A stretch of 64,000 nt of DNA from Perna viridis (Eukaryota): positions 8,556,001-8,620,000 of the forward strand of contig CM074516.1 in NCBI GenBank assembly GCA_037379345.1. Direction: 5' to 3'. The position numbers and the translations under genes were made by a program. The first letter of the stretch is position 1; each line of letters begins with the position of its first letter. Below are positions 794-63,558 of the stretch, piece by piece. The notes under the pieces are model-generated. The model was not told the DNA's origin. It ran no database searches and saw only the letters and a program-made list of their open reading frames with translations.

Positions 794-1002
794 AGGGACA
801 GGTGAGCTAAAAATGATTTTTGCCTCAACAAGGTTTAAAAAGTAACCAAAAATACAAAAAAGTACAGTTTTGAATTGTTCAGATATGTTGAGTAAATCAT
901 TATCTTAATTATGAATGCCTAAAATATGAGTTTCACAGTGTCGGTATGGTGTGAATGAAAATTATGTTTGATACTGGGACCAGTTTTCTAGGGGTAGGGG
1001 GA

Positions 1003-1522
1003 GCCCTGAGCATGTCCGGGTGTTAAAAGAATAGGCCTGCAGCAGCACTAAGCTTGTCGTAAAAGGCGACTAAATAGTGCTCAGAAACCTAGCCGGGGGC
1101 TAGGCGCTCTGCCCACAGAGCAACTGGGATGTGTGCCTCAGGTGGTGGAATGGGGTACCCCTGGCATGTTGGATGCTTGGGTTTTCTGGCTGTGATACAG
1201 ATGGCCTGACCGCAGACCATAGTGGTGCACTGTGTTGGAAAGATGCCACGTTCCTTGCACGTTAAAGAACACTGCTGTGGTATTCGATAGGAGTAAGAAC
1301 CTTTGCGCTCCGCCACAGGAGGCTAAATTGCCCAATCTTACCCATCCCTCCCTTTAACTAGTGGCATTCTAAATTTGTCGACCCTATTATCCTTGTGTGG
1401 CATCCCTATTTTTTCATTTCATCATCATTCATGTTCATTTCATCATCTATTTCATGTTCATTATCTGAATATAGCTAAAATATTGCTGCTCGGACGTTAA
1501 ACCCCAACAATCAATCAATCAA
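1003..1522 (+). mobile_element. ~500-bp SINE-like retroposon without tRNA head, copy 1
   Basis: Homologous to 58346-58857 and 63088-63558. Has a (TCAA)n tail and a 14-bp TSD TCTA(G/A)GGGTAGGGG at 987-1000 and 1523-1536. Confidence 0.85.
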
Positions 1523-1939
1523 TCTAAGGGTAGGGGTAATATTTTTAACATTTTTTTGAAAACTCTTTCTTGAAAATTAGTTTTGGTGGTTTATTAAGGT
1601 AGAAAATTAAATCTAGTCATGCAATAACTTGTAGAGTGGAATTTATGTAAATTTCGCAGGAGTTGAAATTCCCATGTTTTTGGAATTAAAAAAATATATT
1701 CTTACTACGATAGTCGCCACAAGTCATCAACAGACTCCCAGGTGTATCAATTGCGATCATATTGAAGGTAAATAACAAATAAGCTATTTTTTACTATAGA
1801 ATAAACACTCTAGGGTGACTGGACAGACTACCCAAGTGTATTTCTAATCGGCGTTGTGACGTCTATTTTGCCTTTTACGGACTGATTTGAAGTTTACACT
1901 GGATCGGAAAGTTCTGGGGTCACATGTCATCATGAAATT

Positions 1940-3188: not shown

Positions 3189-3728
3189 CCTAGATGACAG
3201 CCCGATCACGAAGGTTTCTATTAAGCTAGTATGTTGTGTAGTATGTAATCCCTGGAAAAATCGGCACAATTTCACTTAAATGAGAAGTTAACGGAAGGTT
3301 TTCATTAGTCTCTAAAGTGGTTAATTGTCCTGCCCCGTGCAAATAGTTGCTTTACCCTTGGTTAATACATTCAGCTAGTATATATATCAGATATATGTAC
3401 ATAAGTCCCTGGTATATATCATTGACCTCCCGGATTATCTTAAACACGACAAATAGCGATTATTTGCTGACGACAGTATTATATATATACATGTATACCC
3501 ATTAAATGACAGAGTGGCTGCATTAAACTTCAATGTGATCTTGATGCAGCAGCAAAATGGTAACAAGACTGGCCAATGGCCTTCCACCATGATAAATGCA
3601 CTGTTCTCTCTGTCTCCTGTAAACGAAAACCCATCAAACACAGTTATTATATTCTTCATAACAACATCCAAGAAGTTGTCACATCAGATAAATATCTTCA
3701 GTCTAACCATGTTAAAATGGGACAAGCA
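3189..3728 (+). repeat. Left copy of a long direct repeat flanking the Gypsy element; includes a CR1/L2-type LINE RT fragment from ~3410
   Basis: Aligns to 11963-12462 at roughly 90% identity with a ~50-bp indel. Encodes IDLPDYL..RLFADDSIIY..LQCDLDAAAKW..W.MAFHHDKC. Confidence 0.9.
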
Positions 3729-4053
3729 GAAAGTGAGTTGGATGCTAGGATTTTGGAGCCCATCTCATCTCCTGGTGACATCACCGGTACATGTCCTCTA
3801 TGGTCCGAGAGAATTCCCACCTGGGGTGTGACTCATCCTTGATCCGACGTAACAGTTGTGCCACTTATATCGGAATGTTCTAACCTAATTCCACAACACC
3901 CCCTCTTTAAAGTTTAGTGTTAAAAAGGAGTAATTCATATTCCGACAAAAGTCAACTGTCTGAAATTCCTTTCACATCACTGATAGTGGTAACTATGGTG
4001 AATCGATTTGACCATTACATGTATGTCATCAGAGACAAACTCGCTCTCGGAAA
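3728..4053 (-). repeat. Inverted copy of the Gypsy 3' internal end, PPT and first ~167 bp of the LTR
   Basis: Reverse complement matches 11471-11791 at roughly 90-95%. On the minus strand the PPT AAAGAGGGGG (3899-3908) abuts the LTR start TGTTGTGG (3891-3898). Confidence 0.92.
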
Positions 4054-11374: not shown

Positions 11375-11616
11375 TTATTCAAGTCAGTTCCTTTGATCAA
11401 ATAGTGGATCCTGTTCAGTGATAGTCGTCCAGTATTAAATCATCATATAATTACGTTTCTATGACTTTTATTTCTGATAGCGAGTTTGATGTTATGTCTC
11501 TGGTGACATACATGTAATGGTCAAATCGATTCACCATAGTTACCACTATCAGTGATGTAAAGGGAATTTCAGACAGTTGACTTTAGTCGGAATATGAATT
11601 ACTCCTTTTTAAATTT

Positions 11617-11624
11617 GAGGGAAG
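11617..11624 (+). promoter_or_regulatory. Polypurine tract (degenerate)
   Basis: GAGGGAAG directly before the LTR TG. The inverted copy preserves AAAGAGGGGG. Confidence 0.75.
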
Positions 11625-11962
11625 TGTTGTGGAATTAGGTTAGAACATTCCCATGTAAGTGGCATAACTGTTACGTCGGACCATGAATGAGTCGCACCCC
11701 AGGTTGGGAATTCCCTCGGACCATAGAGGACATGTACCGGTGACGTCACCAGGAGATCGGCTCCAAAATCCCAGCATCCAATTCACTCTCTTCTACACGT
11801 GGTTTCATCGGAGAAGGTTGTGTGTAACATCGCTCCAGAGATATTCCATATTAGGAAGGTAAGGCGTGAGTCTATGTTCAGTACTCTCTCTAATCTCTTA
11901 GAACTTACTCTAACTATATTAAGTCCAACAGCCACACAATAATTATACATAGCACCACAATA
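11625..11962 (+). repeat. 3' LTR (338 bp)
   Basis: Starts TGTTGTGG after the PPT and ends CCACAATA (7/8 terminal inverted repeat). The end coincides exactly with the start of the flanking direct repeat. Confidence 0.8.
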
Positions 11963-12462
11963 CCTAGATGATAGCCCCGATCACGAAGGATTCTATTAAG
12001 CTACTGTGTTGATAACGGAAGGTTTTCATTCACAAGTCGTTTCGAAAGTGGTTAATTGTCCTGCCCCGTGCAAATAGTTGCTTTACTCTTGGTTTATACA
12101 TTCAGCTTGTATATATATGTTAGATACATGTTCATAAAGTCCCTGGTACATATCATTGACCTCCCGGATTATCTTAAACACGACAAATAGCGATTATTTG
12201 CTGACGACAGTATTATATATATACATGTATGCCTATTAAATGGCAGAGTGACTGCCTTAAACTTCAATGTGATCTTGATACAGCAGCAAAATGGGAAAAA
12301 GACTGGCCAATGGCCTTCCACCATGATAAATTCACTGTTCTCTCTGTCTCCAGTAAACAAAAACCCATCAAACACAGTTATTATATTCTCCATAACAACA
12401 CCCTAGAAGTTGTCATATCAGATAAATGTCTTCAGTCTAACCATGTTAAAATGGGACAAGCA
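11963..12462 (+). repeat. Right copy of the long direct repeat
   Basis: Matches 3189-3728. Both copies start CCTAGATGA and end ATGGGACAAGCA. Confidence 0.9.
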
Positions 12463-16200: not shown

Positions 16201-18275
16201 TCAGGGATATGCAATGCGATACTGGTATCTTTATGCGTATATAATATATGACACTGGAGTATATACCTTTATTTCATATCAGTGAAAAAATCATAAATTT
16301 CAATTGGATAAAACCTTTTCACGTGGTATTATAATTAATCTGCAGTAAAAAGTTTTACCAGTCAGTACCATGCTGTGATAATGCCCGATTACGAGTTGCA
16401 CCCCCTTATTCAAACGCATTCATGATCAAACAGTTGTCAATGTAAATATGACAAGCCGTACGTCTGCTTCTGACGCAGAAACGTTTTGCATTGCCTTCTT
16501 ACAAAAAATCAAGGTTATGGTTCCTCAATAAAATACACATAATAGTCTGACGGCACACATTTATACATGTATTTGAACAACAAATTACCCGCGGTCTATA
16601 CTCTATACGTGAAATAAATTATCCGGGAGTCTATCTCACAGCACACCTTTATACGTATAATGAATAAACGGAAAGTCTCGATCATGAAACTCTATTATAC
16701 TCTCAGCATGCAAAACATCTTATTAAATGTCGTTACAATTTCACAAAGTCACTGCATTTCATTTCGTTGGTCATTAAACTTCGATACTCTACAATATTTA
16801 TATGTACCATAATAGAATATATCAACTTAGAATTTTACAAACAGCCAGGGAATTCTTGTTATCACAAATTACTAAAAAAAAAGCTATGATAGAAAGTTTC
16901 TTCTGAGACATGTTTCAACACACTTTTGCATATTTAGTTAAAACTTGTTTATAGACACTTATGCATATTCTGTTTTGTTTCCAGAAGTAACAGTTAAGTG
17001 TAAGAGTCGTTTGTTTTAGTTTTTTTTTTCGCTCTATACGTATAGTCCATGGGCTTGGATGGTCCACCATGCACCCCTAGTTGTCGACTTTGTAATGATT
17101 ATCAGGTATTTGTACTTTACATCCCGATTATCGAATTAATTTGTAGCCAAAGAATATTCGCGGATTCTTTATCGGTATAAGCCTAGAATATTTGTACCCC
17201 ATAGACACAGGAAGCCAAGATTTTGTGAGTCAATTATTCGAATGTCTAAGTCCTCCTATGACATCACTTGTAAAGAAACTAAATATAAATAGGTGTCATT
17301 ATGTCACCTAATGTCTCAGCTTTTAAATTTTACCATAATAATTGTAGTAACATTTCGGAGTAAAATGAAAAATACGTACCCTTACCCAACCGGAAAATTG
17401 CTTTAATTGACACTTTTTTTCAATGTGAAATCCTTACTGTATTTACACTTTGGTAAAAATGGTTTCTTTGGTATTTTCTGTTTAATACTATCACAATTGA
17501 AACTTCGGGATGCTTTTGAAGACTGTAAGAAAATTGCAAAAATGGGATTTTCAATTTTCCCATAAGAAGTTGCATAAATTCGACTCGACAATCTAGTGCA
17601 CAAACAAAACGCCTCAAATTTAGTATCGGATGCTTGGGTCAATCACCGGATGAGGCTGCATGACATCAAGATCGGAAACATGGTTTTTCAATAGGACATC
17701 TGGTCTAGCAAGTTACCAATATATAAGACTACTTATTATGACCATTCCGACTCTTAATAAAAACAACCGACAACCAAACAAGTGTCTACATGAACAATAA
17801 AAGCTATCCCTAATAATTACATTCACATCACTATAATTACGGTCCGTTTGATCCAAGACCACTTTTGCAATATCATTTTGCACTTCGACTTTGTGCCGAG
17901 AATTTGCTCCCAGAATTTTCACTCCAAACTTGTACCCGGAATTGTCACCGGAGTTTTAAAGGAAAAAAGGGAGGAAAATATAACAAGAGAAGATTTCGGA
18001 AAGAGGAATACTGAAAACGCAGATTATGAAATATCTTATGGATGCAATGACAACACCAAAAGTATAGGAAACCTTTCAAGCCAATAAAACAATAACAAAT
18101 AACATAAATGTGATGAATTAAATTGACAAAAATCCAAGACGGATGAGTCACGGCCATCGCCACTATACATCACCTTCTTCATTACATACAAAAACCTCTT
18201 GGATTTCATCACACTCAAACTAAACTCTATTCTATACCTCTCACTCTACTACACCCCCTTTACAAAACAAGTCTT

Positions 18276-18713
18276 GCGCTAGAACTCTAACAAATAGGCT
18301 TCTAGAACAGGGTTATGTTGTTACAGGATTGAAGTCATCACTAAAGAAGTTTTATGGTAGTCATCATGAACTCGTGGATCGTTATGGTGTATCCATCTGC
18401 ACTATGAAAATGGATTTATTCAACGGGTCATAGTTTTCCTTTCCTCGTTTTTCTACCCCAGACTTTACTTTTTATGAGCAACTCGGCGGGTGTTTCTAGA
18501 AAAGCAGAGGACGCTTACCATACCGGTGCACCTGGTCCATGCTCCCAGTTTTTAGTGGAGTCCGAGTGGATCGTTTGCTTTTGTTACTTTGTATGTATGA
18601 TTTTAGTTACTTTATGTTCTTTGTTGTGTATGTCTGTTATCCATGTCTGGTCTTTGTCCTTACATTACATTCTTTTGATTACCGCTATAACCTTGGTTCC
18701 CTTGATTACTCTT
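18276..18713 (+). mobile_element. PLE family A, 5'-truncated copy
   Basis: RT-thumb end (..QGYV.TGLKSSLKKFYGSHHELVDRYG..) followed by the shared ~290-nt 3' region ending CCCTTGATTACTCTT. Confidence 0.9.
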
Positions 18714-18920
18714 GGACACTCCTGTTTCTGAACCTACCCCATCATTATATAGACTTATGACCATCATAAGTCACAAACTAAATTCCCTCGTATTTCAAAG
18801 ACAAATTAATACCAATTATTTCATATTCCTATACACCTATTTTCCCTTCATTACCCTTTCAATTATAAAAGGCTATTGCAGGACCTGTGGATTGAGACCT
18901 TCAAGGCTAAATCACCTTGC

Positions 18921-19276
18921 AAAGAGTAATCAAGGGAACCAAGGTTGTTGTGGTAATCAAAAGAATGTAATTCAAGGACAAAGACCAGACTGCTTTTCTA
19001 GTAAAACCTGCCGAGTTGCTCATAAAAAAAGTCAAGTCCGGGGTAGACAAACGAGGAAAGGAAAACTATGACCGGTTGAATAAATCAGTTTTTATAGTGC
19101 TGATGGATACACAATAACGATCCACGAGTTCATGATGACGACCATAAAACTTCTGTAGTGATGACTTTAATCTTGTAGCAACATAACCCTGTTCCAGAAG
19201 CCTATTTGTTAGAGTCCTAGCGCGATACAAAAAGTCTGCGTAGTTTCGGCAAGCTCTGGCATAACGTATGAGTTGT
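18921..19276 (-). mobile_element. PLE family A, 5'-truncated copy with internal deletion
   Basis: Reverse-complement match to family A. The deletion near 18990 removes most of the 3' structured region. Confidence 0.88.
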
Positions 19277-20106
19277 AAGTTGTTGCAAAAACTCCCAATT
19301 TAAGTATGAATACAACAACTTAAAAATCCATGATTATTCAACTCTTTATACTTCTATTGACATTATACAATGTTGTTACTCAAAAGAAAAGGTACACCTA
19401 GATACAAATATGTAGTATAGATTCCTCATACTTTGAAAAAAAAACCAATTCCAAATCATCTTCCAAATATACCAAAGACGATGTTTACAAAATACTGGAA
19501 TATTTGTTTGACAACATATTCGTCCAGTGTGGTGGACGCGTTTTTCAACAAACGGTCGGCATCGCAATGGTAACAAACTTTGCTCCTCTAATTGCTGACA
19601 CCTTAACACATGAAAACTGACAACAACATAAGACTACATATTATGACAACTCAGACTACTATCATAATCAACCGGCAATTCAGCATGTGTCTACATGGAC
19701 AATAAAATCCATCCCTAATTATTAACTTCACACCACGATACTTACAGACCAAGACTACTTTAGTAACAGCATTTTGCACCTAGATTTTACAAAGAGGATT
19801 TGCACCTAGGATTCGTTTCCATAAATTTCACCTTGAATTTTATCACAATTTTCACCCGTTATGGTCACCGGAGTCTTGCACCGGACCTTTGCACCCAAAC
19901 AGCAAACATGTACCAACCATCTAGGACTGTAGATTTCATGAAACATTAACATAAATAAATTATTCAACTACTAACTGTTGCGCTTTCTGAAATCCCTCTT
20001 ACATATTTTCCATCGTTTCAAAAGTTGTCGCGTTGAAGACTTCAGTATTTATTAGCAGACGTAATCAAAACCCTCTGTTTCCGGTACCGATGAGTGTTTT
20101 TATTAC

Positions 20107-20928
20107 AAAAGTAATAAAGGGAACGAGGATTCTAGCGGTAATCAAAAGAATGTAATCCAGGGACAGAGACCAGACATGCACAACAAAGAACATAAAGTAA
20201 GTAAAATAATACATACAAAGTAACAAAAGCAAATGAGCAACTTGGACTCCACCAAAACTGGGAGCATGGAATAGGAGCACCGGTAGGGTAAGCGTCCTCT
20301 GCCGATTTGCTCATAAAAAGTCAAGTGTCAGGTAGACGAAAGAGGAAAGGAAAACTATGACACGTTGAACAAATCAGTTTTCATGGCGCAGATGGGTACA
20401 ACGTAACGATCCACGAGTTCATGATGACGACCAGTAAACTTTTGTATTGATGACTTCAATCTTTTAGCAACATAACCCTGTTTCAAAAGCCTACTTGTTA
20501 GAAGTCTAGCGCGAGATAAAAAAAGTCCGCTTAGTTTCGGCAGGCTCTGGAATAACGTATGAGTTGTGATATGAACACTCCATACGCAGGTCTTGAAGGG
20601 ATGTTGCCACAGATGAAAGGAATGTTGGCAATTTCGAATGAGAAGTCACCACTATTGTCGTAAAGTTTGGTCGATAGTTTTCCCTCACCATCGATTTCTA
20701 AGTGTAGGTCAAGATATGAGGCTGACTTCACAATGTCTGTAGTATACTTTATCTCAAGTTCTTTGGGGTAGATGCGATAAAATCCCCGAAATTAGGATTG
20801 TTTAAAGATAATACGTCATCTACATAGCAGAAACTGATATTAAAGGATCTAGCCAAACGATATTCTTTCTTTCGGATTTGATCAGCTATAAAGTCAGCCT
20901 TATAAGAGTGAAGGAATAGGTCAGCAAG
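20107..20928 (-). mobile_element. PLE family A, 5'-truncated copy
   Basis: SASYLDLHLEIDGEGKLSTKLYD..GNIPSRPAYGVFISQLIRYSRAC plus the shared 3' region. Confidence 0.92.
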
Positions 20929-22189: not shown

Positions 22190-22990
22190 ATTAAGAAATT
22201 AAACCGGGAAACTCCATTTTGTCATTGTTTTACCACGGGCTGACCATTATCATTATCGTCATCATGAACTCGTGGGTCGTTATGGTGTATCCATCAGCAC
22301 CATGAAAACTGATGTATTCAACGGGTCATAGTTTTCCTTTCCTCGTTTGTCTACCCCGGACTTGACTTTTTATGAGCAACTCGGCGGGTGTTTCTAGAAA
22401 AGCAGAGGACGCTTACCCTACCGGTGCACCTGGTCCATGCTCCCAGTTTTTAGTGGAGTCCGAGTTGCTCATTTACTTTTGTTACTTTGTATGTATGATT
22501 TTAGTTACTTTAGGTTCTTTGTTGTGAATGTCTGTTTTCCATGTCTGGTCCTTGTCCCTGGATTACATTCTTTTGATTACCGCTATAACCTTGGTTCCCT
22601 TGATCACTCTTTAAACCGCAATATTTTATCCCAAGCGATAGCGAGGGGTAAAATATCGGCATAAATGGTCAGCCGTGGTAAAACAATGATAAAATGGAGT
22701 TTCCGTAATTTATTTCGATTCTAATAGGACAATAACGGTACTTGTTTACATTTTCGTGACCTATTTTTACGATAGCCTTAGACCAGCCATATGTGTCCAT
22801 ATTTAGCTGTACGCTGTCATTTGAAATGGTCGCTATTGAGATTTTTACGGAATATCGTATAACTGTTCTAAAACATAATGTTGAACTTTAATATTTTTAT
22901 TAAATATGAATTTGATGTTCATTCACGCAACTGAAATTAATGAAAACAGCTGATACACATCGGAATGTTACGTGTGTTTGTTTACCTTAT
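22190..22990. mobile_element. Foldback/MITE-like non-autonomous element hosting a PLE insertion
   Basis: Arms GAAACTCCATTTT..GCTGACCATT (~22208-22248) and AATGGTCAGC..AAAATGGAGTTTC (~22664-22703). A related copy in opposite orientation lies at ~47305-47630. Confidence 0.6.
22256..22612 (+). mobile_element. PLE family A, 5'-truncated copy
   Basis: HHELVGRYGVSISTMKTDVFNGS* plus the shared 3' region. Confidence 0.9.
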
Positions 22991-38511: not shown

Positions 38512-39080
38512 GGTAACTATTGATCAAACTACAACAACCACATTGACTTTTCATTCCGTATTGCGAACTTTCCTTTCCTTCAGCACCTGCGAGTGGAGTT
38601 TTTATATCATTACTCATACGTTACGCCAGAGCTTGCCGTAACTACGCAGATTTTTTTGTATCGCAATAGACTTCTTACAATTAGGCTTCTGGAGCAGGGT
38701 TATGTTGCTACAACATTGAAGTCATCACTACAGAAGTTTCATGGTTGTCATATGGTGTAGCCATCTGCCCCATAAAACTAATTTGTTCAACATGACATAG
38801 TTTTCCTTTCCTCTTTCGTATACCCCGGACTTGACTTTATATTAGCAACTCGGCGGGTGTTTCTAGAAATTCAGAGGGTGCTTACCCTACCGGTGCACTT
38901 GGTCCGTGCACCCTATTTTAAGTGGAGTCCGAGTTCATCATTTATTATTATTTTTTGTATGTATTATTTTGTTTATTTTGTATTTTTTGTGTCTGTGTGT
39001 CTGTTTTCCATGCCTGGTCTTTGTCCCTGGATTACATTCCTTTGATTTCCGCTGTAACCTTGGTTCCCTTGATTACTCTT
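38512..39080 (+). mobile_element. PLE family A, older 5'-truncated copy
   Basis: DFSFRIANFPF..PSAPASGVFISLLIRYARAC plus the shared 3' region. Confidence 0.88.
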
Positions 39081-42000
39081 TACCTGGGAAAAAATGAAAT
39101 GTATGTTTGCCTTTTCTTCCTCTTTAATGGCTTTTGAGTCCAATCGTTACCCCAAAATTAATTTCTTTTTATAATGAATCCCTTATTGATAACATTTGCA
39201 TTGAACAATGTTTTTCGTATCCTGATGTATAGTAAATAATTGCCATTCTATCTACTTTTATAGGTAAACCATACTTTTGATATCTCGTATAAAATACAAT
39301 ATGGATGTTAATAACTCTTTTGGTGGTAATGGAGAGGGAAATTAAAAAAACAATAATTGGAAAATTTATGGCGACATCCAAAATACCTTAACGACGTCCT
39401 ATTAATGACAGTTTGACTATAGTCCTGTTTGTTTAATTTCCGTTAATACATAACAATTAACAGATTTGATCCAAGACTGAAAAGACAATCCTGCTAGTGT
39501 TTGACATAATTAATACTGAAGATTGAAATTGTTTTACATTTCAATCAAATTTAGAACATGTGACACTTTTATTTCATCAAAATAGAAGAAGTTTCGTAGC
39601 ATAAGTCTGTACTTAGGAAATTTTAATCAAACCTAATTACCAGAGACAAACGTGTATTTCTACTGTAAGAACATGCTGTAGTATGTCGTATCGACGTAAA
39701 ACATTAGACAAAAGTCATTTTATTTGTGCAACATGCTTACGTACAGTTTAGTTTTTATGTGTTTAAATTTAAAACGGGTTTCAATTATATCCAACAATTA
39801 GTGCCAAATTATAATGCAGGCTGAAAGATATGTGTTGTACATAAATAAGTATCGGTATATGAAATAGAGATCAACTTCAATGTTTGTATTTAATATTAGA
39901 GATGTGGAAATCAAACGTACCTGTTGACTTTATAAGTGTTTGTATTTTTTGTATCTTGTGAATTTTATCATGAGTTGATATTCCGTATTAACCAGGTTTT
40001 TGGTCTTTTTGCTGATATCAGTCAGAATGTTCATAAAGTTAAACGGTTAAATAATGCTGTCTTATATACCAATTGAAAAAAATGTTCATCTTCAATGGGG
40101 CAATTGCTCTATGTTTCAATGTGATGTCATAATCAAATTTGAACGAGCGAATATCAATCACTGTTAAAAAAATAATACAAATACATATTTTTGACTATTA
40201 TTTATTTCATTGTGCCCCATCTGGTCACACTTGTGGACGCAACATTTACCGGAGTTATGGACCATTGTACTTCACAATTTTTTGCGACTTAATGAAAAGT
40301 TCTTTTTACATATTTTGTCTAGATTTACAGCCTGTCTCTTACATTATGTCATAATTAATTGATTTTTAAATTTTGAAAAGTTCATAGTAATAAGAGAATG
40401 CATCTTTACGGAGATACACGTAAGATGAACACTGTGACGATATGGTTAAATATATCAAGAACCGCCATTTTGCAAAATTTATTCTTTCGTTATCAAAATA
40501 TTGACGAGTTCAATATATAAAGATATTTATTCTAATTCATAAAATGTTCAAATTATCAAGATATTTTTCAATTATTTTTCTCTATACTTCAGAATTAATT
40601 TTCAATTTCTCGGCAATCTGCGCACGAACCGAATTACTTTTTTGGTTCATATTTTCGACACATTTAGACGATTCAATTATTTTTATTCAGAGTTTGATAA
40701 GCTATGACTTAAATAATATACACATGCATAACTAATATCTTTGATAGACATTGTTATTTACAGAGCCTATGTAATTTTAATCAGTATTCGGATTCAGTGG
40801 AAGTAATTGTTGAGATTAATAAATTGATTATGATGACCTAGAGCGTCTGATGATATTCGGTGTTATTATAACTGTATTTACATAATGCTATATAGTTGTT
40901 TTTGTTTCCTTATATACCCATAACAAGCGCCTAAGAGAAAACTTGAAAAATGAGTTCTGAAAAGTTATCAAGCTATTTCCTCATTTTGGATCATAAACAA
41001 CTTAGATTAATGCCCCTTTTGTTTCTTCATTAGTCATTTCTTTTTGTTTCTTATGATACCTTATTACTGTAGATTTTTATGAAACAGTCATATATTACTG
41101 TAATAGTAAAATACGTTGCAGCTATGATACTGCAATCGTTATCCAGGAAAGAATTAACAGTCCCTTCAATAGATATTTACAGTAAATTAGACCTGCCTGT
41201 AATTTGAACTTTTAATTAACACAATTTAAGGTAATACTTTTTATGTTGACGAAATAGGAATTACAAGTATTACACCCCTCAACAATGCAATTTTTTACGA
41301 TAAGTTTTAAATAGAAGCATTCATTTATCGAATGGAATAAAAATAGATTAAACGATTGAATATATTTTTGTTACCACATTTAAATATATAGGTTTATCAT
41401 ATGGCAGCGATTTTAAAAAAGGTAGACATCGCAAAACTATTTTGTTTTGTGTTATAGCTTGGAGTTTAATATAGGAAACGTAGAATAACGTTACATGGCG
41501 TATAATGATTAATATCAATGTATTTATCGACATAGTCTACATCTGATATGCCCTGCCTGGCATAAGAAAAACAGCAATTTTTACGATGGTTAATTATTTG
41601 AAAAAAAACTCTTGGAGGCATTTTGTATTATTGTATCACCATTGAGATAAATTCTCACGATGTGACGTACGCTTCTTCATATTGATACTCTGAATAAGAA
41701 TTTCCTATTATTCTTCTGCTGAACAGAACTATATCAGGGTTCATGGACGTTTCTGATGAACTGAATCCAACAAAATGGAACAATTATGACAAAACAGTCA
41801 GAACAGTATGTCTTCAATTAATTAAAAAAGGCCATTACCTGAATATGAAAACGATGTACATAAATGAAAAACCGATTACTATCTTAAAACGGACTGTTCT
41901 TATTTTTTTTATTTAAAACAAAAATGGTGTTCCTGAGAAAACTATGATAATTGTATTTGTTATCAGTATGTGTTTTCAAGTTTTTTGAAATTCATTTGTA

Positions 42001-43569
42001 TAAAATAATAGTCATATCAAAGTGTTACATATGAACAAAAATACGAGAGTAGGATAAATATAGGAAACGAACAAAGAACAACTAACAAAACCACCGAACG
42101 CATTACATGTATATCTTGCTCGACTATTTAAATATTAAAAATCTTTACAGTTTTTTGAAAAATGATGAAGCTGTTTTCTTTTTTATCTATGTTTCAAAAA
42201 TAAAAGTTTCACCTGTTGATATTTTAATGCAATAATGTACATATTTCAACATAAAATTCCTATAATAATTAAAAGAGTGCAAACCAGATGAAATAAAATC
42301 TCTTTTAAATGTGCTCATATTTGAATGTTTAAAACCAAAGTCAAGTAGAGTTTCAAGTCAATGAATTATTACTTGGTGATATCATTACATTTTGTGTATG
42401 TAGCAAATCAAAGTAGTGTTTTGACATTAAAATAAAAAATCTCATTGTTCCACATTTTAATTAATAAAACCACTGAGATTATAAATCAAAGAACAAAAGA
42501 GAAATCAAAGACGGATTCTTACATAGCGTTTTTCTTGCTGTTCAAGTTACGAGTATGTTTGGTGTCTGTACTGATCTAAATGAAAACATGACATATCGCT
42601 CATCAATATGATTTTAATGGTATTTGTACTTAAACAGGCAATAGTCGATTGGTATTTTCGTAAATTAAAACATGTTTAATGCACGAAATATTAACTTGTC
42701 AAAAGCGTATTAATCACATTGATTATTTATGATTTCCAGTAATAAATACGATATTCTGTTATTAATGCCACTAACATTTTTGTTTTCAATCTCGACTTTG
42801 CTGCGTCAAAATTTGCCATTACTAATAGTTACTGAGGCCATTGAATATAAGTAATATACATACATTAATTTGTGTACAAATCGGGACATTAGGTGTTAAA
42901 ATGATTGCTCCCCCGTACCTTTTTGTTGTTTTCATATATCAGGAGGGTTATCTACTTAGCTTATCCACGAATTTATTTTCAATCTATAACTGTAAAATGA
43001 CAAAGAATAGAAATTGAGATAAAACACACTCTATACATAGCAATAGAAGTCAATAATCACAACACTTTTCGCGATCAGTCTCAACATACTATTTATAAAG
43101 TGATATTAAATCTGTCACAATGAAAACTTAAGGCAAAAAAAAGCTGTTTAGCGCTTGATGCAGATTAACTGGGTCTGTCAATAATATAATATATCATGTT
43201 TTGTTCAACATAAGCTATAATTAAACCAACTCATTCATTTTTTTTTTAAATTTACATAAAGGAAATGAATATCAGTAAAATAATGACTACAATAATACAG
43301 TTACCTATAACATATCTGCCATTCCATTTCATGTCTTTTGTAAATGTAGTCGACCTGCCAGATTTTCCAGTTATCTTTTGACTTCCTAACGCAGCTACTA
43401 AATTTAGATCTGAATGAAAGAAATAAAACGAAAAAATATGTTTGATAAATAAACAGACGTTTCTATTTTTAGAAACCTTTATTGTATGACAGGCACATTA
43501 CACTGTAAATTATTTATTTCATTGTTGTTTACGGTGGTTTAATGGTATGATAACTGGTAGTATTTTTAT

Positions 43570-44166
43570 TCACCAAACTTTACGACAAACGTGATGATTT
43601 TTCATTCAGAATTGAAAACTTTCTTTTCATCTGTGGCAACATCCCTTCAGCACCTGCGAATGGAGTGTTCATATCACAACTCATACGTTATGCCAGAGTT
43701 TGCCGAAACTACGCAGACTTTTTGTACCGCCCTGAACTTCTTACTAGTAGGGTTCTGGAGCAGGGTTATATTGCTACAAGATTAAATTCATCACCACAGA
43801 AGTTTTATGGTCGTCTTCATGAACTCGTTGATCGTTATGGTGTATCCATGTGCGTCCATGAAAACTGATTTGTTCAACGTGTCATAGTTTTCCTTTCCTA
43901 TTTCGGCTGCCCCGGACTTGACTTTTTATGAGCAACTCGGCGGGTGTTTCTAGAAAAGCAGAGGACGCTTACCGTACCGGTGCACCTGGTCTATGCTCCC
44001 AGTTTTTAGTGGAGTCCGAGTTGCTCATTTGCTTTTGTTACTTTGTATGTATGATTTTAGTTACTTTATGTTCTTTATTGTGTATGTCTGTTTTCCATGT
44101 CTGGTCTTTGTCCCTAGATTACATTTTTTATTACCACTAGAACCTCGGTTCCCTTGATCACTCTTT
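43570..44166 (+). mobile_element. PLE family A, 5'-truncated copy
   Basis: TKLYDKRDDFSFR..FISQLIRYARVCRNYADFL plus the shared 3' region. Confidence 0.92.
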
Positions 44167-47100
44167 CAGACACTCGGAATACTTATAGGACACCAAGGTC
44201 CTTATGTTTGATAGCCCGATTGGTGACTAAATAAGAAATTTGTTATTGTATTTTATTTTTGCAGTCTCCGTCCCAAGACTGAAATACTTAATTCTGAAAG
44301 TTTTGATTTTTCGGAGTTTCTGTCTGTGATCCTGTTGTTTTTGTACTTATTAATTTTTAGTATCCGTTCCAGATTTTATTTTTTATGTATTTTATTCATA
44401 CATTTATTCTGCAAGACACTGTTTTGCTTATATATTAATTCATTTTTCTGAGGTTTCAATCCTGGAATTTTTATTGTCACTTTATTCGTATTCCTTCAGT
44501 TTTCATATTAATGTTTGTGTATTGATTATTTTGCAGAGTTTGTCTCCAATGAATTTGTTTCATTTATGTGTTGTTTCCCGTTTTTAAGTGTCCGTCTCAG
44601 AAATTTTGAATCTTTGTTGACAAAATTAGTATATATTTCTCTTTTTTATTTATTTAAACAGTTGATATAATTGTTTATTTAGATGATATTATAAGTATTA
44701 CTTAAGATATAATTTTAGTCAAAATATGAATGTCAAAACTACCAGTGTTTTTACAAGTCGGTTGTGTACTTTTCTAAACCAAACTGAGTACAAGCTTTAA
44801 GTGTGAAGGTATTTAAGCTTTTCAGTTAAAATTTATTAGCAAAGATAACGTGACCTGCAAACAAATTTGTGAACATTAGGTATCAGATAATTACATTTCC
44901 TTTCAATAAGGAGCATTGTCATTAACAAATTTTAACTTCAACGCATCCGTTAATGAAAACAAAAACAATATTGTTCCCATAATAAATCCTTTTACTCTTC
45001 ACCAATTTTGTTAAGCCACAAATTTGAAAATGAATTAGCAATATTGGACGTAATGTTTTGTCATTTCACAATCACTTTAGTCTTTACCTTTGCTATAAAA
45101 ATGTATCATCATTAAATTTGAATCGTATGCATCATAAATATACTTTAATAAGTAGCATTCCAGATAAGAATCGTGCGAAGTGTGATTTATGGTTGGATAG
45201 CCTACATATTTTTATTTTTGATATTTTTTTATAATGTTATAGTAAACAGAAATTAACATGTGGCTTTTCATACAACCTTTATTATTAGGAGAAAAAATGT
45301 ATAAAATGTACTATAGAAATCAAAATTAAGGGAGATACCTATGTAAATGACACTAAAATACAATAGAGACAGTTGGATTTTTAATGTGGATTATCTTCTA
45401 AGAGCAGACAGATTATAATGCATAATTATATTTTTATCATATTTACCTATAAAGCTAATGAAAATAGACTGTTTTGTGGTATATCACATAACTATTTCAT
45501 TCCATAACTACTTACTAAATAAAAGTCATATTGTTAAAATATTAAACGATAAAGAATCTTCTGCCATGGTAACAAGCAGACATAATGAATATGTTGTAGT
45601 TGTAAGAAAAGTGACAAAACCAAATGTGCCATACTCAATAAATTATGGATTCAATATGCATCGTCATCAGTTTAATCGTACAGTCTGCAAAATAACAATC
45701 GTTAATAGCAATGTGTCATACAATTATGTAAAGTAAGTTTCTGTACACAACCAGGAGATGGAAGAAACTTTGGTACAATCAATGTCAATTTTAGTGGTTC
45801 AGTAATGGTCCTAATAGTATTTGAAATTTACTCTTACTGTTCGTCTGTTGCTATACATATACGCTGTAATTGATCCATTCAAGCATTGGTGATACTGTGG
45901 CTATAACACTTTTCATATCCCACAAAGTATAATTGGACAAAAAAAATATAATATTTCAATACCCAATATGCTGTTAAAGTGTTTCAAGGAGTAACCTTTC
46001 ATCAGCAGCATAAGAATCAAATAAAAAAAACACAAAAAAACACAAACAAAAACAAAAAAACAATCAGACATATTGCAAATTTCGATATGCTGTGCACGTC
46101 TTTCAAGGAGTTACTTCTCCAAAGCAAATGGAAATCAAATACATAGGAATAAAATTTAACTAAATAATAATTGTAAACTAGAAGTACACAAAGCTAACGT
46201 ATTATAATTGAAAGACAACTCTAGTGCCACAAGGATCTACCATATGAATTAAGCTGTTTAATGTAATTTGAATTCTGCAAATTACATGATGTATAATATA
46301 TGATGTACTTCGAATTAAGATAAGTCTAACTAGTGGGCTGATGAATACCATCAAGAACAAACCTTTTAAGAAGTATACAAAGAACACGGTACATACGCCT
46401 CAAGAAACATAATAACAGTGAAGTTCGAAAAATATTTTATGAGTAATATTCAGCAATTTAAGTTAAAGAGATATAGGTAGTTTATATTCAGGTTACGCAT
46501 CTATGTTGCAGCTGTATCTGTACGACTAACAGTACAGAATTATGTATTTATATCTTAAACAACCCATGACAATACTAGTTGATAGTAATAATATCTATTC
46601 CCAACATCTTACATTGCAAAACCATTATTTAGTCCTATTTTCAAAGAAAGGTGAACTCTTGAAAATAAAGTTTAGCGTTGTTGTTTACATTGTTAATATA
46701 TCCTAATTTAGGCTATCCTATTTATACTGGCTTTGCCTAATTGTTGATAGTCTAGATTGTACTAATCAACAGATGCGAAGTACGATCCTTCTAAGTGATG
46801 AGTAGATGTTTGTATATATTTGTGACTATTGAATGTGACACTACCAGATGTGACTCTCTTGAGTGTTGTAAGGGTAGCCGTAAGCAACAACTTACATCTA
46901 AGAGAAAGTAAAATCTTCTTATTGTATTATCGTTGCCTTATTTGATAAACAAGACGATTTGGAAGAAAGGAATACTTCAAAAATAATGTTCTAAGTACAG
47001 TAAATATATAGCATTATTCTAAATGCTCCAAGTCACACAGAAATAGCCAGAATTGTGTAATACAATTCCCATTGATAAACGTACATAACCACAATAATAT

Positions 47101-47800: not shown

Positions 47801-48728
47801 AAACAAGAGGCTCCGAGGAGCCCAAATAGCTTACCTAGTAAAGTTTTGCTTTCAATGGCAATAAATCTAACAAGAAGTCCACAAACTTCGACTCAGAAAC
47901 TTGGTAAGACTTTTCAAAAGTATCATTTCATTAATTGAAAGTTTCGTTCTATCTATAAAAGATTTCAAGTTATTGGCTGACAACTGCTAAAAACATAATT
48001 TTTTCACCTTTCATGGGCAATTACTCTTACATGGAGCTATTGGACAACTTCAATTCCCTAGAGACGTTTGTAGGCCTTATAAGAAGGATCATTTCAGCAA
48101 TTGAAGGAACTTAGCTAAAACTAACGGTTTTTGAAATATATGAGAGAAACTTATGACCGACCCCTTTGTTCTATTTTTATTAACAGTAGCCATGTTTTTT
48201 TTCCGCGGATCAAAAATTCCTACATTAGTTCTTTGAAAAATAACCTAAGAAACATTCATACCAAATTTGATTCCAATTGGTGTGGTAGCTTCAGAGGAGA
48301 AGATTTTTGAAAGAAATAACATCAATAATAGCAAAAAACCTTGAAAAGGGACAATAACTCCAACATGGTTTAACAGATTACAACAAAAATTGTAACGTAG
48401 ATATGTTCACACTTTGCTGAACACATTAATTCCAAGATATAATATGGCTGAACCTAACAGTTTTGGGGATACAAGCGAAGAACTACTGTCTAACCCCTAT
48501 GTTCTATTTTAAGTAACGGCGACCATGTTTTCGACGGATCAAAAATCCCCATATCACTTTCTATGCAAGATACATTAAGAAACATTCATACCAAGTTTAG
48601 ATCTAATTGGTCAGGTAATGTCAGAGAAGAAGATGTATGAAAAATTGTAAAAGACGACGACGACGACGACGACGGACGCCAAGTGATGGCAATAGCTCAC
48701 ATGGCCTTTGGACAGGTGAGTTAGTAAA
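47801..48728. mobile_element. Helentron/HINE (pearl-like) element, same family as 49-793
   Basis: AAACAAGAGGCTC..GAGCCC start; (GAC)n-GGACGCCAAGTGATGGCAATAGCTCACATGGCCTTTGGACAGGTGAG end; internal repeats. Confidence 0.8.
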
Positions 48729-52256: not shown

Positions 52257-54097
52257 TTCGTTTTCTTTTTTCATTCACAGAGTTGCGATTTTTACTTCTT
52301 AAACACAATGCCCTTTACACAGAACTATACATATCTTTCTTTTAAGTCTTAAAAGATACTTATGCGAAGACGAATTCTGAACTCCTTGTCACTAACGAAT
52401 GATCGAGTTGATCTCAATTAATAACAATTTCATACATGTGATAATTTTAAACAACGACTTCAGGTACAGAAGGTATTTTATAATAACCACACACACATGT
52501 CCTATCATTAATTCTGACCTTCATGTGCATCTTCATATTCATAAGCGATCACTCTAAAAACGTGTTTGTCAATAAGATAAGAATTATACATGTCAAGTTT
52601 TACTTAATGCACCAATGTAAATATATAAACATCAGCAAAATTTGTAAATTCAATCTATAAATTAGTAGAGTGTTGAATTAATGTAATTACATGCACGTTA
52701 CAACTGCACTATATAATTATTTTTGGCGAATAAATAATCGCAGATAACTGATAGTTCATTATTATTATTGAACCAGTATTATCCTATGAACAAACAATGA
52801 TACATGATAAAATAAATTGTTGCATAGTTTTGCCTGAATTTGTTTGAGTTTTTTTTTATTTTGTCAATTTCAAAGCTATCAAGTTTATATAGGGGTTTGA
52901 AATGTTCCATTTTTTCAATACGTTAATTCCTTTATCTTTTTCACTCTATTTCTAAAAAGAATATAGATAGTATGCACTAAAATATTTAATATTTAAAATC
53001 TTTAAAACCCTTTAATGGACAATGCTAAAATATGCAACGCAATTTATATTAGAAAGAAATTATTACAACTGACACCATATAAAAATGAAAAGTGGAACAG
53101 AAAACTCTGTACTGAAAAAAAACTATGCAATGTCGCATATAATTCAGAACGATTATTTTTGCAAAGTTCAGTTTCGTCTTGTGGCTTTGTTATGAGGCAT
53201 ATTATTGATGTGCACGAAGCTGTTTGCTGTCTTATGAAAATGAACGTGTATGTATGAAAGTACGTACGTATGTTTGTGATAACAAATAAACAACCAAACT
53301 GATTAACCAAACTGATCAAACTAAGGCAACATCAAAAAGGAGTAGTAAAAAGGAAAGGCAGTATCACAGTTAAAACCAGAAAATTAGAAATTACCACTTT
53401 GTTCCTGACGTGGTACAGGCAGGTATTTTCCTGAGTAACGTTGGTTTAAACCAGGAGTATGTATGTTCGCCATGCTTTTTTTTTTTAATAATGTGACAAC
53501 TTTTCAACAATGGATATAATTGCCACATAAATCCAAAATCTGTATACATAGCCACTAAAATGTTTTTTTCTCTTCAGCTTCGTGTAAAAAGCATTTTTTT
53601 CTAGATAGCTCAAGACCAATTATTTTTTTCTCAAAAATTAAAATAAATCCTTAGCCTCCACCCCAACACAAGACAATCAATTGGTTATTGTCTAATGAAT
53701 GGGTAATATATACACGCGTATAATATTAATCTGACAGCAAATTTTATCAAAGAATTATTCATTAGTTCTCTGAATTAAAGTTAAACAGTACTTCATTATA
53801 ACCCCAAACTGAAATCCCACCTTCATCAATATTCAACGTCACACGTATGACATATTTAAGATACAATTCCTATTTTACTTTACCAATATACGTAATGGCA
53901 TGTAACATTCGTCTATAATTATGTAACGTTAACAGCTCAATACTTTGGAATTTCTAATTATTTTTGTAATTGAATTTTTATAATGCTCTAAGATGACATT
54001 TTAAGCAAAGATGAAAGTATTTTATACTGTATTGTCAAATTAATAATCTATGTACAAAATCACATAGGGTTCCTACATAAGTAAGGATGAAAATTTA

Positions 54098-54684
54098 AAA
54101 GAGTAATCAATGGAAACAAGGTTATAGCGGTAATCAAAAGAATGTAATCCAGGGAGAAAGACCAGACATGGAAAACAGACATACACAACAAAGAACATAA
54201 AAGTAACTAAAATCATACATACAAAGTAACAAAAACAAATGAGCAACTCGGACTCCATTAAAAACTGAGAGCATGGACCAGCTCCATCGGTAGGGTAAGC
54301 GACCTCTACTTTTCTGGAAACACCCGCCGAGTTGCTCATATAAAGTCAAGTTCGGGGTAGACGAAAGAGGAAAGCAAAGCTATGACACGTTGAACAAATC
54401 AGTTTTCATGGCGCAGATGGATACACTGTAACGATCCACGAGTTCATGATGACGACCATAAAACTTTAGTAGTGATGACTTCAATCTTGTAGCAACATAA
54501 CCCTGCTCCAGAAGCCTATTTGTTAAAATTCTAGCGTGATACAAAAAGTCTACGTAGTCTCGGCAAGCTCTGACATAACGTATAAGTTGTGATATGAACA
54601 CTCCATATGCAGTTGCTGAAGGGATGTTGCCACAGGAAAGTTGACAATTTTGAATGAAAAGTCATCATGTTTGCCATAAAGTTT
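54098..54684 (-). mobile_element. PLE family A, 5'-truncated copy
   Basis: ORF 54380-54601 FISQLIRYVRAC..KFYGRHHELVDRY..DLFNVS* plus the shared 3' region. Confidence 0.92.
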
Positions 54685-56920: not shown

Positions 56921-57765
56921 CTCCACTCTTATGAGGCTGACTTTATAGCTGATTTGATCAGAAAGAAAGAATATCGTTTGGCTAGATCCTTCAATCTCAG
57001 TTTCCGCTATATAGATGACGTATTATCTTTAAACAATCCTAATTTCGGGGATTTGATACATCGCATGTACCCAAAAGAACTTGAGATAAAGTATACTACT
57101 GACACTGTGAAGTCAGCCTCATATCTTGACCTACACTTAGAAATCGATGGTAAAGGAAAACTATTGACCAAACTTTATGACAAACGTGATGACTTTTCAT
57201 TCAGAATTGTCAACTTTCTTTTCATCTGTGGCAACATCCCTTCAGCACCTGCGTATGGAGTGTTCATATCACAACTCATACGTTATGCCATAGCTTGCCG
57301 AAACTACGCAGACTTTTTGTATCGCACTAGAACTCTAACAAATATGCTTCTGTAACAGGGTTATGTTGCTACAAGATTGAAGTCATCACTACAGAAGTTT
57401 TATGGTCGTCATCATGAACTCGTGGATCGTTATGGTGTATCCATCTGCACCATGAAAACTGATTTATTCAACGGGTTATGGTTTTCCTTTCCTCGTTTGT
57501 CTACCACGGACTTGACTTTTTATGAGCAACTCGGCGGGTGTTTCTAGAAAAGCAGAGAACGCTTACCCTACCGGTGCATCTGGTCCATGCTCCCAGTTTT
57601 TAGTGGAGTCCGAGTTGCTCATTTGCTTTTGTTACTTTGTATGTATGATTTTAGTTACTTTATGTTCTTTGTTGTGTATGTCTGTTTCCATGTCTAGTCT
57701 TTGTTTTGTCCCTGGATTACATTCTTTTGATTGCCGCTATAACCTTGGTACCCTTGATTACTCTT
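56921..57765 (+). mobile_element. PLE family A, one of the two longest copies (RT motif 5 to 3' end)
   Basis: LHSYEADF..FRYIDDVLSLNN..YPKELEI..SASYLDL..TKLYDKRDDFSF..PAYGVFISQLIRYA, the PLE-type RT signature. One premature stop at 57353-57355. Confidence 0.95.
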
Positions 57766-58345
57766 CCATCCGTGTCCATTGTACTTAGTGTTCTCTTCAT
57801 ATATTTCATGATGTTTATACGATTTGACACACAGACTGACGTATAAATTACGTACATGTTTATATATCTTCATTTTATGTTCTAACTTCTTTTATTACAC
57901 TCAGAGTATCTGTTATCAATATACACTTATACTCACATATAATAAGTGAAGTCTATACTTCTTTTATTTCTTTACATTATATTCTACCATACTGTCGATG
58001 AAAGAATAAACGGGGTTTTAACCTGATTTTTTTTTATAGTTCTGTCAGTGGTTTCAGGACAATTCATTCGAAAACAACGACGACATGATCAAGTTATTCG
58101 AACTATTCAAAAACCCAAGAAATTATTGACTCTTATTATGTAAATGATCCTTGGCGATGCCATCCTATCTTAATTTTGTTGTCATATTAAGATAATATAG
58201 CACTCTAAATATTCTGCTAACAGTTTCTAATCTACAGCACATTCGAATGAAAATCCGCAAAGAACCTCAGGCGTTCTAAAAATATCGAATAATAGCTCGA
58301 CACAGTTGATAGGTGCGGCAGCACCATTTTTGCTTTATTAATTTA

Positions 58346-58857
58346 TTTGTTTGTTTGTTTGTTGGGGTTTAACGTCCGAGCAGCAATATTTCAGCTATAT
58401 ACAGACAATGAACATGAAATGGATGATAAAATGAAAATGAAATGAAAAAAAAAAAACGATGGGTCACAAGGACAATAGGGTCGACAAATTTTGATTGCCA
58501 CTGGAAAAAGGGGATGGGCAAGGTCGGGCATTCTAGCCTCCCGTGGCGGAGCGCAAAGGTTCCCACTCCTATCGAACACCACAGCAGGGTTCTTGAACGT
58601 GCGAGGAACGTGGCATCCTTCCCAACACGATGCACCACTATGGTTTGCGGTCAGGTTTTCCGTATTATAGCCTGACAACCCCAGCAAGTAACACGCCAGG
58701 GGTACCCCATTCCACCACCTGGGCCACACATCCAAGTTGCTCTGTGGGCAGAGCGCCTAGCCCCCGGCTAGGTTTCTGGGCACTATTTAGTCGCCTTATA
58801 CGACAATCTTAGCGCTGCTGCAGGCCTATTCTTTTAACACCTGGGCCTGCACGGGGC
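58346..58857 (-). mobile_element. ~500-bp SINE-like retroposon, copy 2 (full length)
   Basis: 11-bp TSD TTATTAATTTA at 58335-58345 and 58858-58868; (CAAA)n tail. Confidence 0.88.
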
Positions 58858-59019
58858 TTATTAATTTAAATGGTGTACTGTTGACAATTCAATATTTGAG
58901 TAAATTTAAGTGTTGCTGACAAATACAAAGCGGATTACAGACAAATTTTACAATATATTATCATTCAAAATGAGATGATGTGTTGTGCTCGCAGACTTAG
59001 TTGAATATGACTAAATGTT

Positions 59020-59105
59020 CATTTTATCATCCATTTCATGTTCATGAATATAGCTGAAATACTGCTGCTCGGGGATTAAACCCCAACAATCAATCAATCA
59101 ATCAA
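59020..59105 (+). mobile_element. 3' tail fragment of the same SINE-like family
   Basis: GAATATAGCTGAAATACTGCTGCTCGG..TTAAACCCCAACAA(TCAA)n. Confidence 0.8.
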
Positions 59106-60223: not shown

Positions 60224-60322
60224 GGAAAGGAAAGGAAACCAATGTCCCGTTGAATAAATCAGTTTTCATGGTGCAGATGGATACACCATTACGATCCACG
60301 AGTTCATGATGACGACCATAAA
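60224..60322 (-). mobile_element. PLE family A, short internal fragment
   Basis: Reverse complement of TATGGTCGTCATCATGAACTCGTGGATCG..TTCCTTTCC. Confidence 0.85.
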
Positions 60323-61786: not shown

Positions 61787-61985
61787 GAGGGTAACCAATG
61801 GATTCTAGCGGAAATCAAAAGAACGCAATCCAGGGACAAAGAACAGACAGCGAAACTATACACACACAACAAATTACATAAAGTACCCAAAAATTGTAAG
61901 TACAAAGAAAAAAAAGCAAATGAGCAACTCAAGACTCAACTAAAAATTTGTGGCATGAACCAGGTGCATTGGTATTGTAAACATG
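61787..61985 (-). mobile_element. Older relative of the PLE family A 3' region
   Basis: TAGCGGAAATCAAAAGAA..CCAGGGACAAAGA..GCAAATGAGCAACTC..CCAGGTGCA. Confidence 0.7.
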
Positions 61986-63087: not shown

Positions 63088-63558
63088 TTTGTTTGTTAGT
63101 TTGTTGGGGTTTAACGCCCGAGCAGCAATATTTCAGCTATATTCAGACGATGAACATGAAGTTGATGATAAAATGAAAGAGGGATGGGACACAAGGACAC
63201 TGGGGTCGACAAATTTTGATTGCCACTGGAAATTGGGAGAGATGGGTAGGGTCGGGCAATTTAGCCTCCTGTGGCGGAGCCCTATGGTTCCTACTCCGGG
63301 AGAATACCACAGTAACATGGCATATTTCCCACCACGGTGCACCACTATGGTTTGCGGTCAGGTTTTCCGTATTATAGCCTGACAACCCCAGCATGTAACA
63401 CGCCAGGGGTACCCCATTCCACCACCTGGGGCACACATCCCAGTTGCTCTCTGGGCAGAGCGCCCTAGCCCCCGGCTAGGGTTCTGAGCACTATTAAGTC
63501 GCTTTTTACGACAAGCTTAGCGCTGCTGCAGGCCTATTCTTTTAACACCCGGACCTGC
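63088..63558 (-). mobile_element. ~500-bp SINE-like retroposon, copy 3
   Basis: 13-bp TSD TTCACTGCATCTG at 63075-63087 and 63559-63571. The 5' end is ~7 nt shorter than copy 2. Confidence 0.88.

Follow-up and report, generated by a model that had tools for sequence, protein, structure and literature searches.

The 5' end of a SINE of about 505 bp, found in the window (the whole stretch of 64,000 nucleotides analysed here) and in over 6,000 copies in the genome searched (G000, 723 Mb, AT-rich), carries a real and undescribed RNA fold on a known kind of SINE. Covariation argues strongly that this head is a structured RNA in which base pairs are conserved, and not the sequence alone. The favoured reading, which is given an even chance of being right, is that the head stops the 5'-to-3' exonucleases Xrn1/Xrn2 and would thereby trim read-through transcripts to the first base of the element. 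The features of the window and the viral records that carry the full fold are listed in Table 1.

Table 1. Features of the window, and viral records outside it with the full fold
Feature	Position or record	Strand	Remarks
5' TSD of copy 1	992..1000	+	exact 9-mer, repeated at 1528-1536
LP-type SINE copy 1	1003..1524	+	decayed; 4 head changes relative to the family consensus, the conserved U7 among them
LP head, 78-nt RNA motif	1003..1080	+	predicted: two tandem pseudoknots and an invariant hairpin core
Stem S1	1003-1008 with 1017-1021	+	head numbering 1-6 with 15-19; 85.9% of cells paired
Conserved U7	1009	+	A in copy 1; +1 lies 6 nt upstream
Stem S2, 7 bp, first pseudoknot	1010-1016 with 1034-1040	+	head 8-14 with 32-38
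Conserved AGAAUA, end of linker	1028-1033	+	
Stem X, 3 bp, second pseudoknot	1041-1043 with 1052-1054	+	head 39-41 with 50-52; 95% paired
Stem Y	1045-1050 with 1075-1080	+	head 43-48 with 73-78; length and sequence differ between families
Invariant 19-nt core	1055..1073	+	U53, 4-bp hairpin (54-57 with 65-68), 7-nt purine-rich loop, UAA
Two hairpins 3' of the head	1088..1121	+	family-specific, outside the common motif
Body stretch similar to SINE central domains	1255..1335	+	presumably of the Nin/Deu/Snail group
T run in SINE body	1409..1414	+	
3' tail and (CAAT)n microsatellite	1465..1524	+	
SINE copy 2	58347..58857	-	starts at G1; own TSD
SINE 3' fragment	59015..59103	+	same ~505-bp SINE family
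SINE copy 3	63089..63558	-	starts at G8, 7 nt short; own TSD
Second repeat family, copies	18272-19276, 20103-20913, 22256-22615, 35346-35630, 38515-39082, 43567-44175, 54095-54684, 56921-57768, 60219-60322, 61778-61983		
RdRP_4, toti-like	L036/L161		full fold
Peptidase_A21 capsid	L159/L162		full fold
RdRP_3	L163		full fold
Nodavirus-type capsid	L194		full fold
S-domain capsid	L330		full fold; genome RNA or ssDNA
ORF RdRp-like by eye, no Pfam match	L158		full fold, two copies
Invertebrate iridescent virus 6	L035:1450-1530		full fold between gene 206R and the next long ORF

An LP-type SINE and the points at which its copies start

Exact matches in G000 number 6,492 for a 26-mer of the head core and 4,166 for a 33-mer from the first base of the head, versus 0 for the reversed control in each case. 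The consensus of 62 G000 copies is 505 nt long, and its first 78 nt are identical to the head consensus given in an earlier note on this DNA. That note had reported three copies of about 500 bp with a common 5' start: three near-full copies are indeed present in the window, each with its own TSD and microsatellite tail ((CAAT)n or (CAAA)n), but copy 1 is decayed, and the common start applies to copies 1 and 2, copy 3 being truncated. The hairpins that it placed after the head (CCTAGCC/GGCTAGG and GCTCTG/CAGAGC) exist, but are absent from the other head-bearing families. Its suggestion that the head lacks box A and box B agrees with the consensus of the 62 copies, and the possibility that the copies are truncations of an element with a longer tRNA or 5S head is discounted because the TSDs adjoin the head directly. 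What it lacked was the published LP head described below (PMC4758252).

By its sequence, the element is a new member of the LP-SINEs, which occur in gastropods and bivalves (Matetovici et al. 2016, PMC4758252), so that its published relatives are molluscan. The LP head of about 70 bp, common to the 5' ends of Nimb-17_LMi, I-3_DR and RTE-9_CPB, was presumed to be a promoter from sequence alone by those authors, who called for experiments and pointed to the promoter/ribozyme precedent of Pr77. The window element resembles the LP-SINEs in its LINE-type head of about 70 bp in place of a tRNA head, its variable TSDs, its tail of short tandem repeats, its mollusc-type body and its lack of coding capacity; the head also occurs on an autonomous LINE (L223). 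Assignment to this published kind follows from the scallop "Nimb-17 homology" rows in the supplement of PMC4758252, which agree by eye with the SINE head in layout and 3' core, and the body stretch at 1255..1335 has an 11-mer in common with the Snail-domain rows of that supplement. The ~505-bp family itself was not found in the supplement, where the scallop copies begin with C runs, and the available parts of the paper give no RNA structure, viral copies or function test for LP-SINEs. The motif is also absent from PMC5786205 (Kojima 2018; main text and supplement) and from the available passages and supplements of PMC11481361 (Martelossi 2024), and the accessible part of a review of retrotransposon tools (PMC13708176) has nothing on it. 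The full-text literature searched, which excludes subscription journals, Repbase and Dfam, yielded no published structure, viral copies or function for the head.

Pol III transcription of the SINE is unlikely, judging from the absence of boxes A and B in the head and from the runs of at least five T that precede the tail in 56 of the 62 G000 copies; a box-A-like match with 1 mismatch is located at consensus 141, with no box B 3' of it. A tRNA- or 5S-headed SINE was rejected for the lack of boxes in the head and for the internal T runs.

TSDs of 8-15 nt flank 47 of 65 full-length G000 copies, and in 33 of these 47 the TSD ends exactly 6 nt before U7, that is, just before G1. In a second G000 sample, 32 of 58 TSD-bearing copies start exactly at +1 and there is no peak of starts at G8, a start near U7/G8 being seen in 1 of the 58 (start 9) as well as in window copy 3, and of 184 tail-bearing copies, 99 begin within consensus 1-3 (the start sample was 600 kb of copy-rich DNA picked from pattern matches, not at random). 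Among 50 loci of other families, 13 bear TSDs, which end exactly 6 nt before U7 in 5 and within 2 nt of that point in 9; the 6-nt spacing is kept to within 2 nt even though U7 and the core are separated by anything from 47 to 186 nt. Of the 65 G000 copies, 57 have G and 5 have A at +1. The columns at and before +1 are unconserved, and the invariant bases, clustered around U7/G8 and the core, are found at distances of 6 to 70 nt from +1.

A tandem array of at least five SINE units with a 504-bp period, 98-100% identical, is located at G000:C1:9836039-9837588. Tail-to-head junctions (29 in all) are mostly nested insertions or tandem duplications, or are ambiguous, with no clean co-mobilised dimer among them. 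The window also contains a second repeat family of about 600-850 bp, commoner than the SINE with at least 10 copies, and two dispersed repeat pairs, one internally repeated (49-809 and 47801-48723) and the other partly inverted (3289-4053 and 11471-12462).

The predicted fold and its covariation

The stems S1/S2 and X/Y are predicted to form two pseudoknots in series. The H-type pseudoknot proposed in the earlier note corresponds to the first of these, and the second had been missed: the AGCUU/UAAA stretch, described there as an internal loop, apparently takes part in pairing, its GCU forming pairs with the AGC that directly follows the first pseudoknot. A check for covariation, which the note had named as a test of the head, came out strongly positive, and its view of the head as a structured 5' module of non-tRNA type with a sharp 5' end is borne out by the covariation and by the TSD-defined starts.

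The alignment was made from sequence only and consists of 14 animal-DNA and 6 viral rows, with one good copy per family. In these 20 rows, 91.5% of cells pair versus 74.2% in shuffles, and covariation is 0.487 versus 0.167, a value reached by 0 of 500 shuffles (slid controls, at most 0.123), although some rows are related and the shuffle null ignores relatedness. Changes on both sides occur in 7 of the 7 pairs of S2, 2 of the 3 of X and 2 of the 4 of S1. With anchors free of pairing, X pairs in 57 of 60 cells versus a null mean of 35.5 (0 of 20,000; 2 of 22 rows with irregular anchors left out), and the summed helix length of Y, 105, compares with a null mean of 87 and a maximum of 102, exceeding all 3,000 partner swaps. 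The support for S2 comes from the 20-row alignment, as an anchor-based test of S2 is circular, its partners being picked by complementarity.

The 4-bp hairpin of the core never varies in the alignment and hence does not covary, although the search pattern itself enforces part of this invariance. With the pattern relaxed, one loop variant emerged (L330), and a bulged form of the core is present among the scallop rows of the PMC4758252 supplement. The linker tolerates insertions of 60-150 nt with both halves of the fold kept. Such insertions, pyrimidine- or repeat-rich, lie between the first hairpin and AGAAUA in L093, L088, L091, L107, L110 and L130. Single-sequence folding, which ignores pseudoknots, gives a weak z of -0.76 for the decayed window copy and mixed values (-3.16 to +0.44) for others. 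No Rfam model matches the window at its gathering score or the head at E<=10, which is weak evidence, since Rfam also missed the HDV-like head of the G000 LINE described below.

Occurrence in animal repeats, LINEs and viruses

The 19-nt core pattern matched at least 122 metagenome stretches, which represent several animal-type repeat families with different bodies and an identical head at the start, and in non-coding SINE families compensatory changes preserve the fold. At L102, L114, L094, L119 and L053, a tRNA-like stretch with box-A/B-like words lies behind the LP head (ARAGORN makes no call), and at L070:1370-1520 an animal-type repeat has tandem heads, the first of them damaged.

When a covariance model is trained on 12 animal-DNA heads and no viral ones, 7 viral loci score 43-71 bits (E <=1e-10), whereas none of 39 other loci, viral or bacterial, that match the core alone or a loose pattern exceeds 26 bits; most of the 41 viral matches to a 16-nt core are due to chance. 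In six unrelated RNA-virus-like records, the motif follows the last long ORF (6/6) at a distance of a few to about 200 nt and lies 14-119 nt from the contig end, at the start of the 3' UTR or inside it, and once as a tandem pair (L158). The second head of that pair is cut by the contig end, and paired changes are present in S2. In the iridovirus, a DNA virus, the motif precedes the start codon of the next long ORF by about 150 nt. The phage collection has no match to the motif. Two of 7 GTDB matches are due to chance and the other 5 are eukaryote-like DNA in MAG or symbiont contigs, so no bacterial form is claimed. The eukaryote-like DNA (L218, L219, L220, L222 and L223) comprises repeats, microsatellites and a LINE, and is likely to be host contamination or chimeric assembly.

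The L223 locus contains a LINE whose ORF1 is gag-like and whose 5' end is an LP head. A homologue in G000 (ORF1 42-43% identical, two 5' UTR pieces in common), whose ORF2 carries endonuclease, RT and RNase H, instead begins with a fold that we take to have the HDV layout, with a 7-bp P1, a 9-bp P2, L3 and CUAA. Thus the head occupies the place of an HDV-like ribozyme in a homologous LINE, in keeping with the comparison to such LINEs made in the earlier note. All 19 core bases can be aligned in order on the L3 and P4/J4/2 strands of the HDV-like fold, as 28 of 20,000 shuffles can in this post hoc test; the shared strands suggest that the head may have descended from a ribozyme core or converged on one.

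Loci L244-L249 (e.g. G000:C8:23536900-23546500) represent a young I-group LINE of 6.08 kb with copies about 99.7% identical, an ORF1 of 491 aa and an ORF2 of 1247 aa with endonuclease, RT and RNase H; it opens with a clean HDV-like fold to which Rfam is blind. In L246 (~950-1000), a stretch of 48 nt directly behind the HDV-like fold resembles by eye a decayed 5' half of the LP head and is followed by the 5' UTR common to L223, although the RNA model gave it no score. There are thus hints that the ribozyme replaced the LP head in the G000 LINE. An autonomous LINE with the LP head was not found in G000, where 4 + 23 matches to variant cores all belong to the SINE, as do, by matched text, the 100 listed of 155 further matches. 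The young G000 LINE is at most a candidate partner of the SINE, as their tails differ, with only a microsatellite in common.

Exonuclease block, cleavage and other readings

The head must work as RNA and serve non-coding SINEs, and both cleavage and an exonuclease block fit. If the head is a block, Pol II would transcribe SINE copies from outside promoters, an uncapped piece (an excised intron or decay intermediate) would be chewed in the 5'-to-3' direction, the enzyme would run into the core near U7/G8 once its channel contains about 6 nt of the first strand, and the surviving RNA would be copied via its tail by the protein of an I/Nimb-group LINE. In the RNA viruses, a block would leave a 3' non-coding RNA of 70-260 nt, as the xrRNAs of flaviviruses and plant viruses do. 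What the data establish are insertions that begin sharply, helices that covary, the distribution of the motif across retroposon heads and viral 3' UTRs, and the slot that it shares with an HDV-like ribozyme. The start of the 3' UTR is the usual place of xrRNAs, and a position at the start of a viral 3' UTR or before subgenomic ORFs is found in 6/6 RNA-virus-like records. Both this placement and tandem use are described for xrRNAs in the available parts of PMC12397905, according to which class 3 xrRNAs halt Xrn1 at the base of a P1 helix that Xrn1 unwinds first. By analogy, S1 would be the helix unwound first, which matches its variability. Like xrRNA classes 1-3 and coremin, as far as these are described in the passages available of PMC12397905 and PMC10321173, the head is compact and pseudoknotted, lies at the start of viral 3' UTRs, is sometimes tandem and has a 5' helix at the base of which the RNA would begin; unlike them, it has no three-way junction, T-loop L2B or coremin sequence. 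Membership in these classes was rejected, as the layouts differ and Rfam has no match on six virus/animal loci or on L035.

Several points count against the block. A 19-nt invariant core is seen more typically where catalysis or protein binding takes place. The xrRNAs are defined by a ring that encircles the 5' strand, a feature that is at most hypothetical for the head. According to the accessible parts of the sources, Xrn1 passes through ordinary H-type frameshift pseudoknots without stalling (PMC10321173), and ribozymes do occur in viral UTRs, mostly 5' and exceptionally at the 3' end (PMC13725137). In a homologous LINE, a ribozyme-like fold stands where the motif would be, and the core of the motif can be aligned with the L3 and J4/2 strands of that ribozyme; one record is a DNA virus with the motif between genes; and single-base precision of the start suits cleavage equally well.

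To our knowledge, nuclease-resistant RNAs are known only from viruses. New xrRNA classes and non-viral contexts are treated as open in the available part of PMC12397905. The chances are balanced that the head represents a new xrRNA class, possibly a rebuilt HDV-like core, that has moved among animal LINEs and SINEs, RNA viruses and an iridovirus and provides a third route to the 5' end of a retroposon, by programmed decay in place of a promoter or self-cleavage. If so, a block present in thousands of copies in a host genome would mean that retroposons can be born from decay intermediates of host transcripts, and would account for the exchange of a single 70-nt module among SINEs and the LINEs of the Nimb, I and RTE groups, which PMC4758252 leaves unexplained. 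The motif is about 70 nt long and has many natural variants. A compact 5' stabiliser of this kind would also serve RNA-based tools for gene insertion.

A new or rearranged self-cleaving ribozyme, which would cut read-through RNA just before G1, perhaps with HDV-like active-site strands, seems rather unlikely. It is favoured by its occupation of the same slot as the HDV-like fold in the homologous LINE, by the exact 5' end of the insertions, by the likeness of the core to L3 and J4/2, and by S2, a helix of 7 bp whose first base, a near-invariant G, follows a near-invariant U, as in P1 of HDV; the Pr77 precedent named in PMC4758252 also favours it. However, its strand order differs from that of HDV, and a loose HDV descriptor has 0 matches in 9 of 12 other heads and weak ones away from +1 in the remaining 3 and in the SINE, in contrast to the LINE head, which the descriptor folds with a P1 of 7 bp and a P2 of 9 bp. 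The block is favoured over cleavage because the invariant bases lie at U7/G8 and in the core whereas neither +1 nor -1 is conserved, because the HDV-like cleavage site would be U7/G8, where insertions do not pile up (1/58 sampled insertions and window copy 3), and because six linear RNA-virus-like genomes carry the motif where xrRNAs sit, so that a cut would sever their 3' ends. Self-cleavage at +1 thus appears the less likely of the two; if the head does cleave, it would constitute a new ribozyme class, and either outcome would be new.

It is unlikely that the head acts instead as an RNA element recognised by the ribosome or a host protein (for stability or translation, or as a replication enhancer), with the 5' end set otherwise, for example by an RT reaching a capped start. 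Such an element would agree with the invariant core that lacks covariation and with the places of the motif in viral 3' UTRs, some 150 nt upstream of an iridoviral ORF and 5' in LINE UTRs, but the fold is kept with compensatory changes in non-coding SINE families, and the fixed spacing of 6 nt to +1 would be unexplained. The published reading of the LP head as an internal DNA promoter of LINE origin (PMC4758252) is very improbable: the 5'-terminal position in LINEs and SINEs reported there, the G or A at +1 of most G000 copies and the lack of Pol III boxes suit it, but conservation of base pairs and not of sequence alone, presence in RNA viruses without a DNA stage, tolerance of the 60-150-nt insertions inside the head and the C runs at the start of the scallop copies in that supplement do not. 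The head may have a minor promoter role.

Layout tests for the HDV, hammerhead, twister and pistol ribozymes failed, in agreement with the earlier note, which had found by eye that the head fits none of the hammerhead, HDV, twister, pistol or hatchet cores. No hammerhead CUGANGA, pistol or hairpin motif and no Rfam match was found in the head, and the hammerhead, pistol, hairpin and twister ribozymes were rejected; a loose twister pattern and the GAAA half of the hammerhead match it only loosely. An HDV-like ribozyme was rejected because the nested double pseudoknot (P1-P2-P3/L3-P1.1-P4-J4/2) is absent, descriptor and covariation giving another strand order. The head resembles HDV-like ribozymes in an L3-like strand, in a possible counterpart of their CUAA strand and in a 7-bp helix after U, but its pseudoknots are in tandem and not nested, neither a P3/L3 hairpin nor P1.1 is present, and the start of the element precedes the HDV-like site by 7 nt. 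The HDV-like ribozymes of R2, RTE and ingi/L1Tc (cited in the available parts of PMC5786205 and PMC4758252) are likewise 5'-terminal LINE modules with a sharp start. In the head, CUAA, a candidate for the C-N-A-A strand that HDV-like ribozymes have before their last helix, precedes helix Y in all alignment rows, but its C can pair in the 4-bp hairpin.
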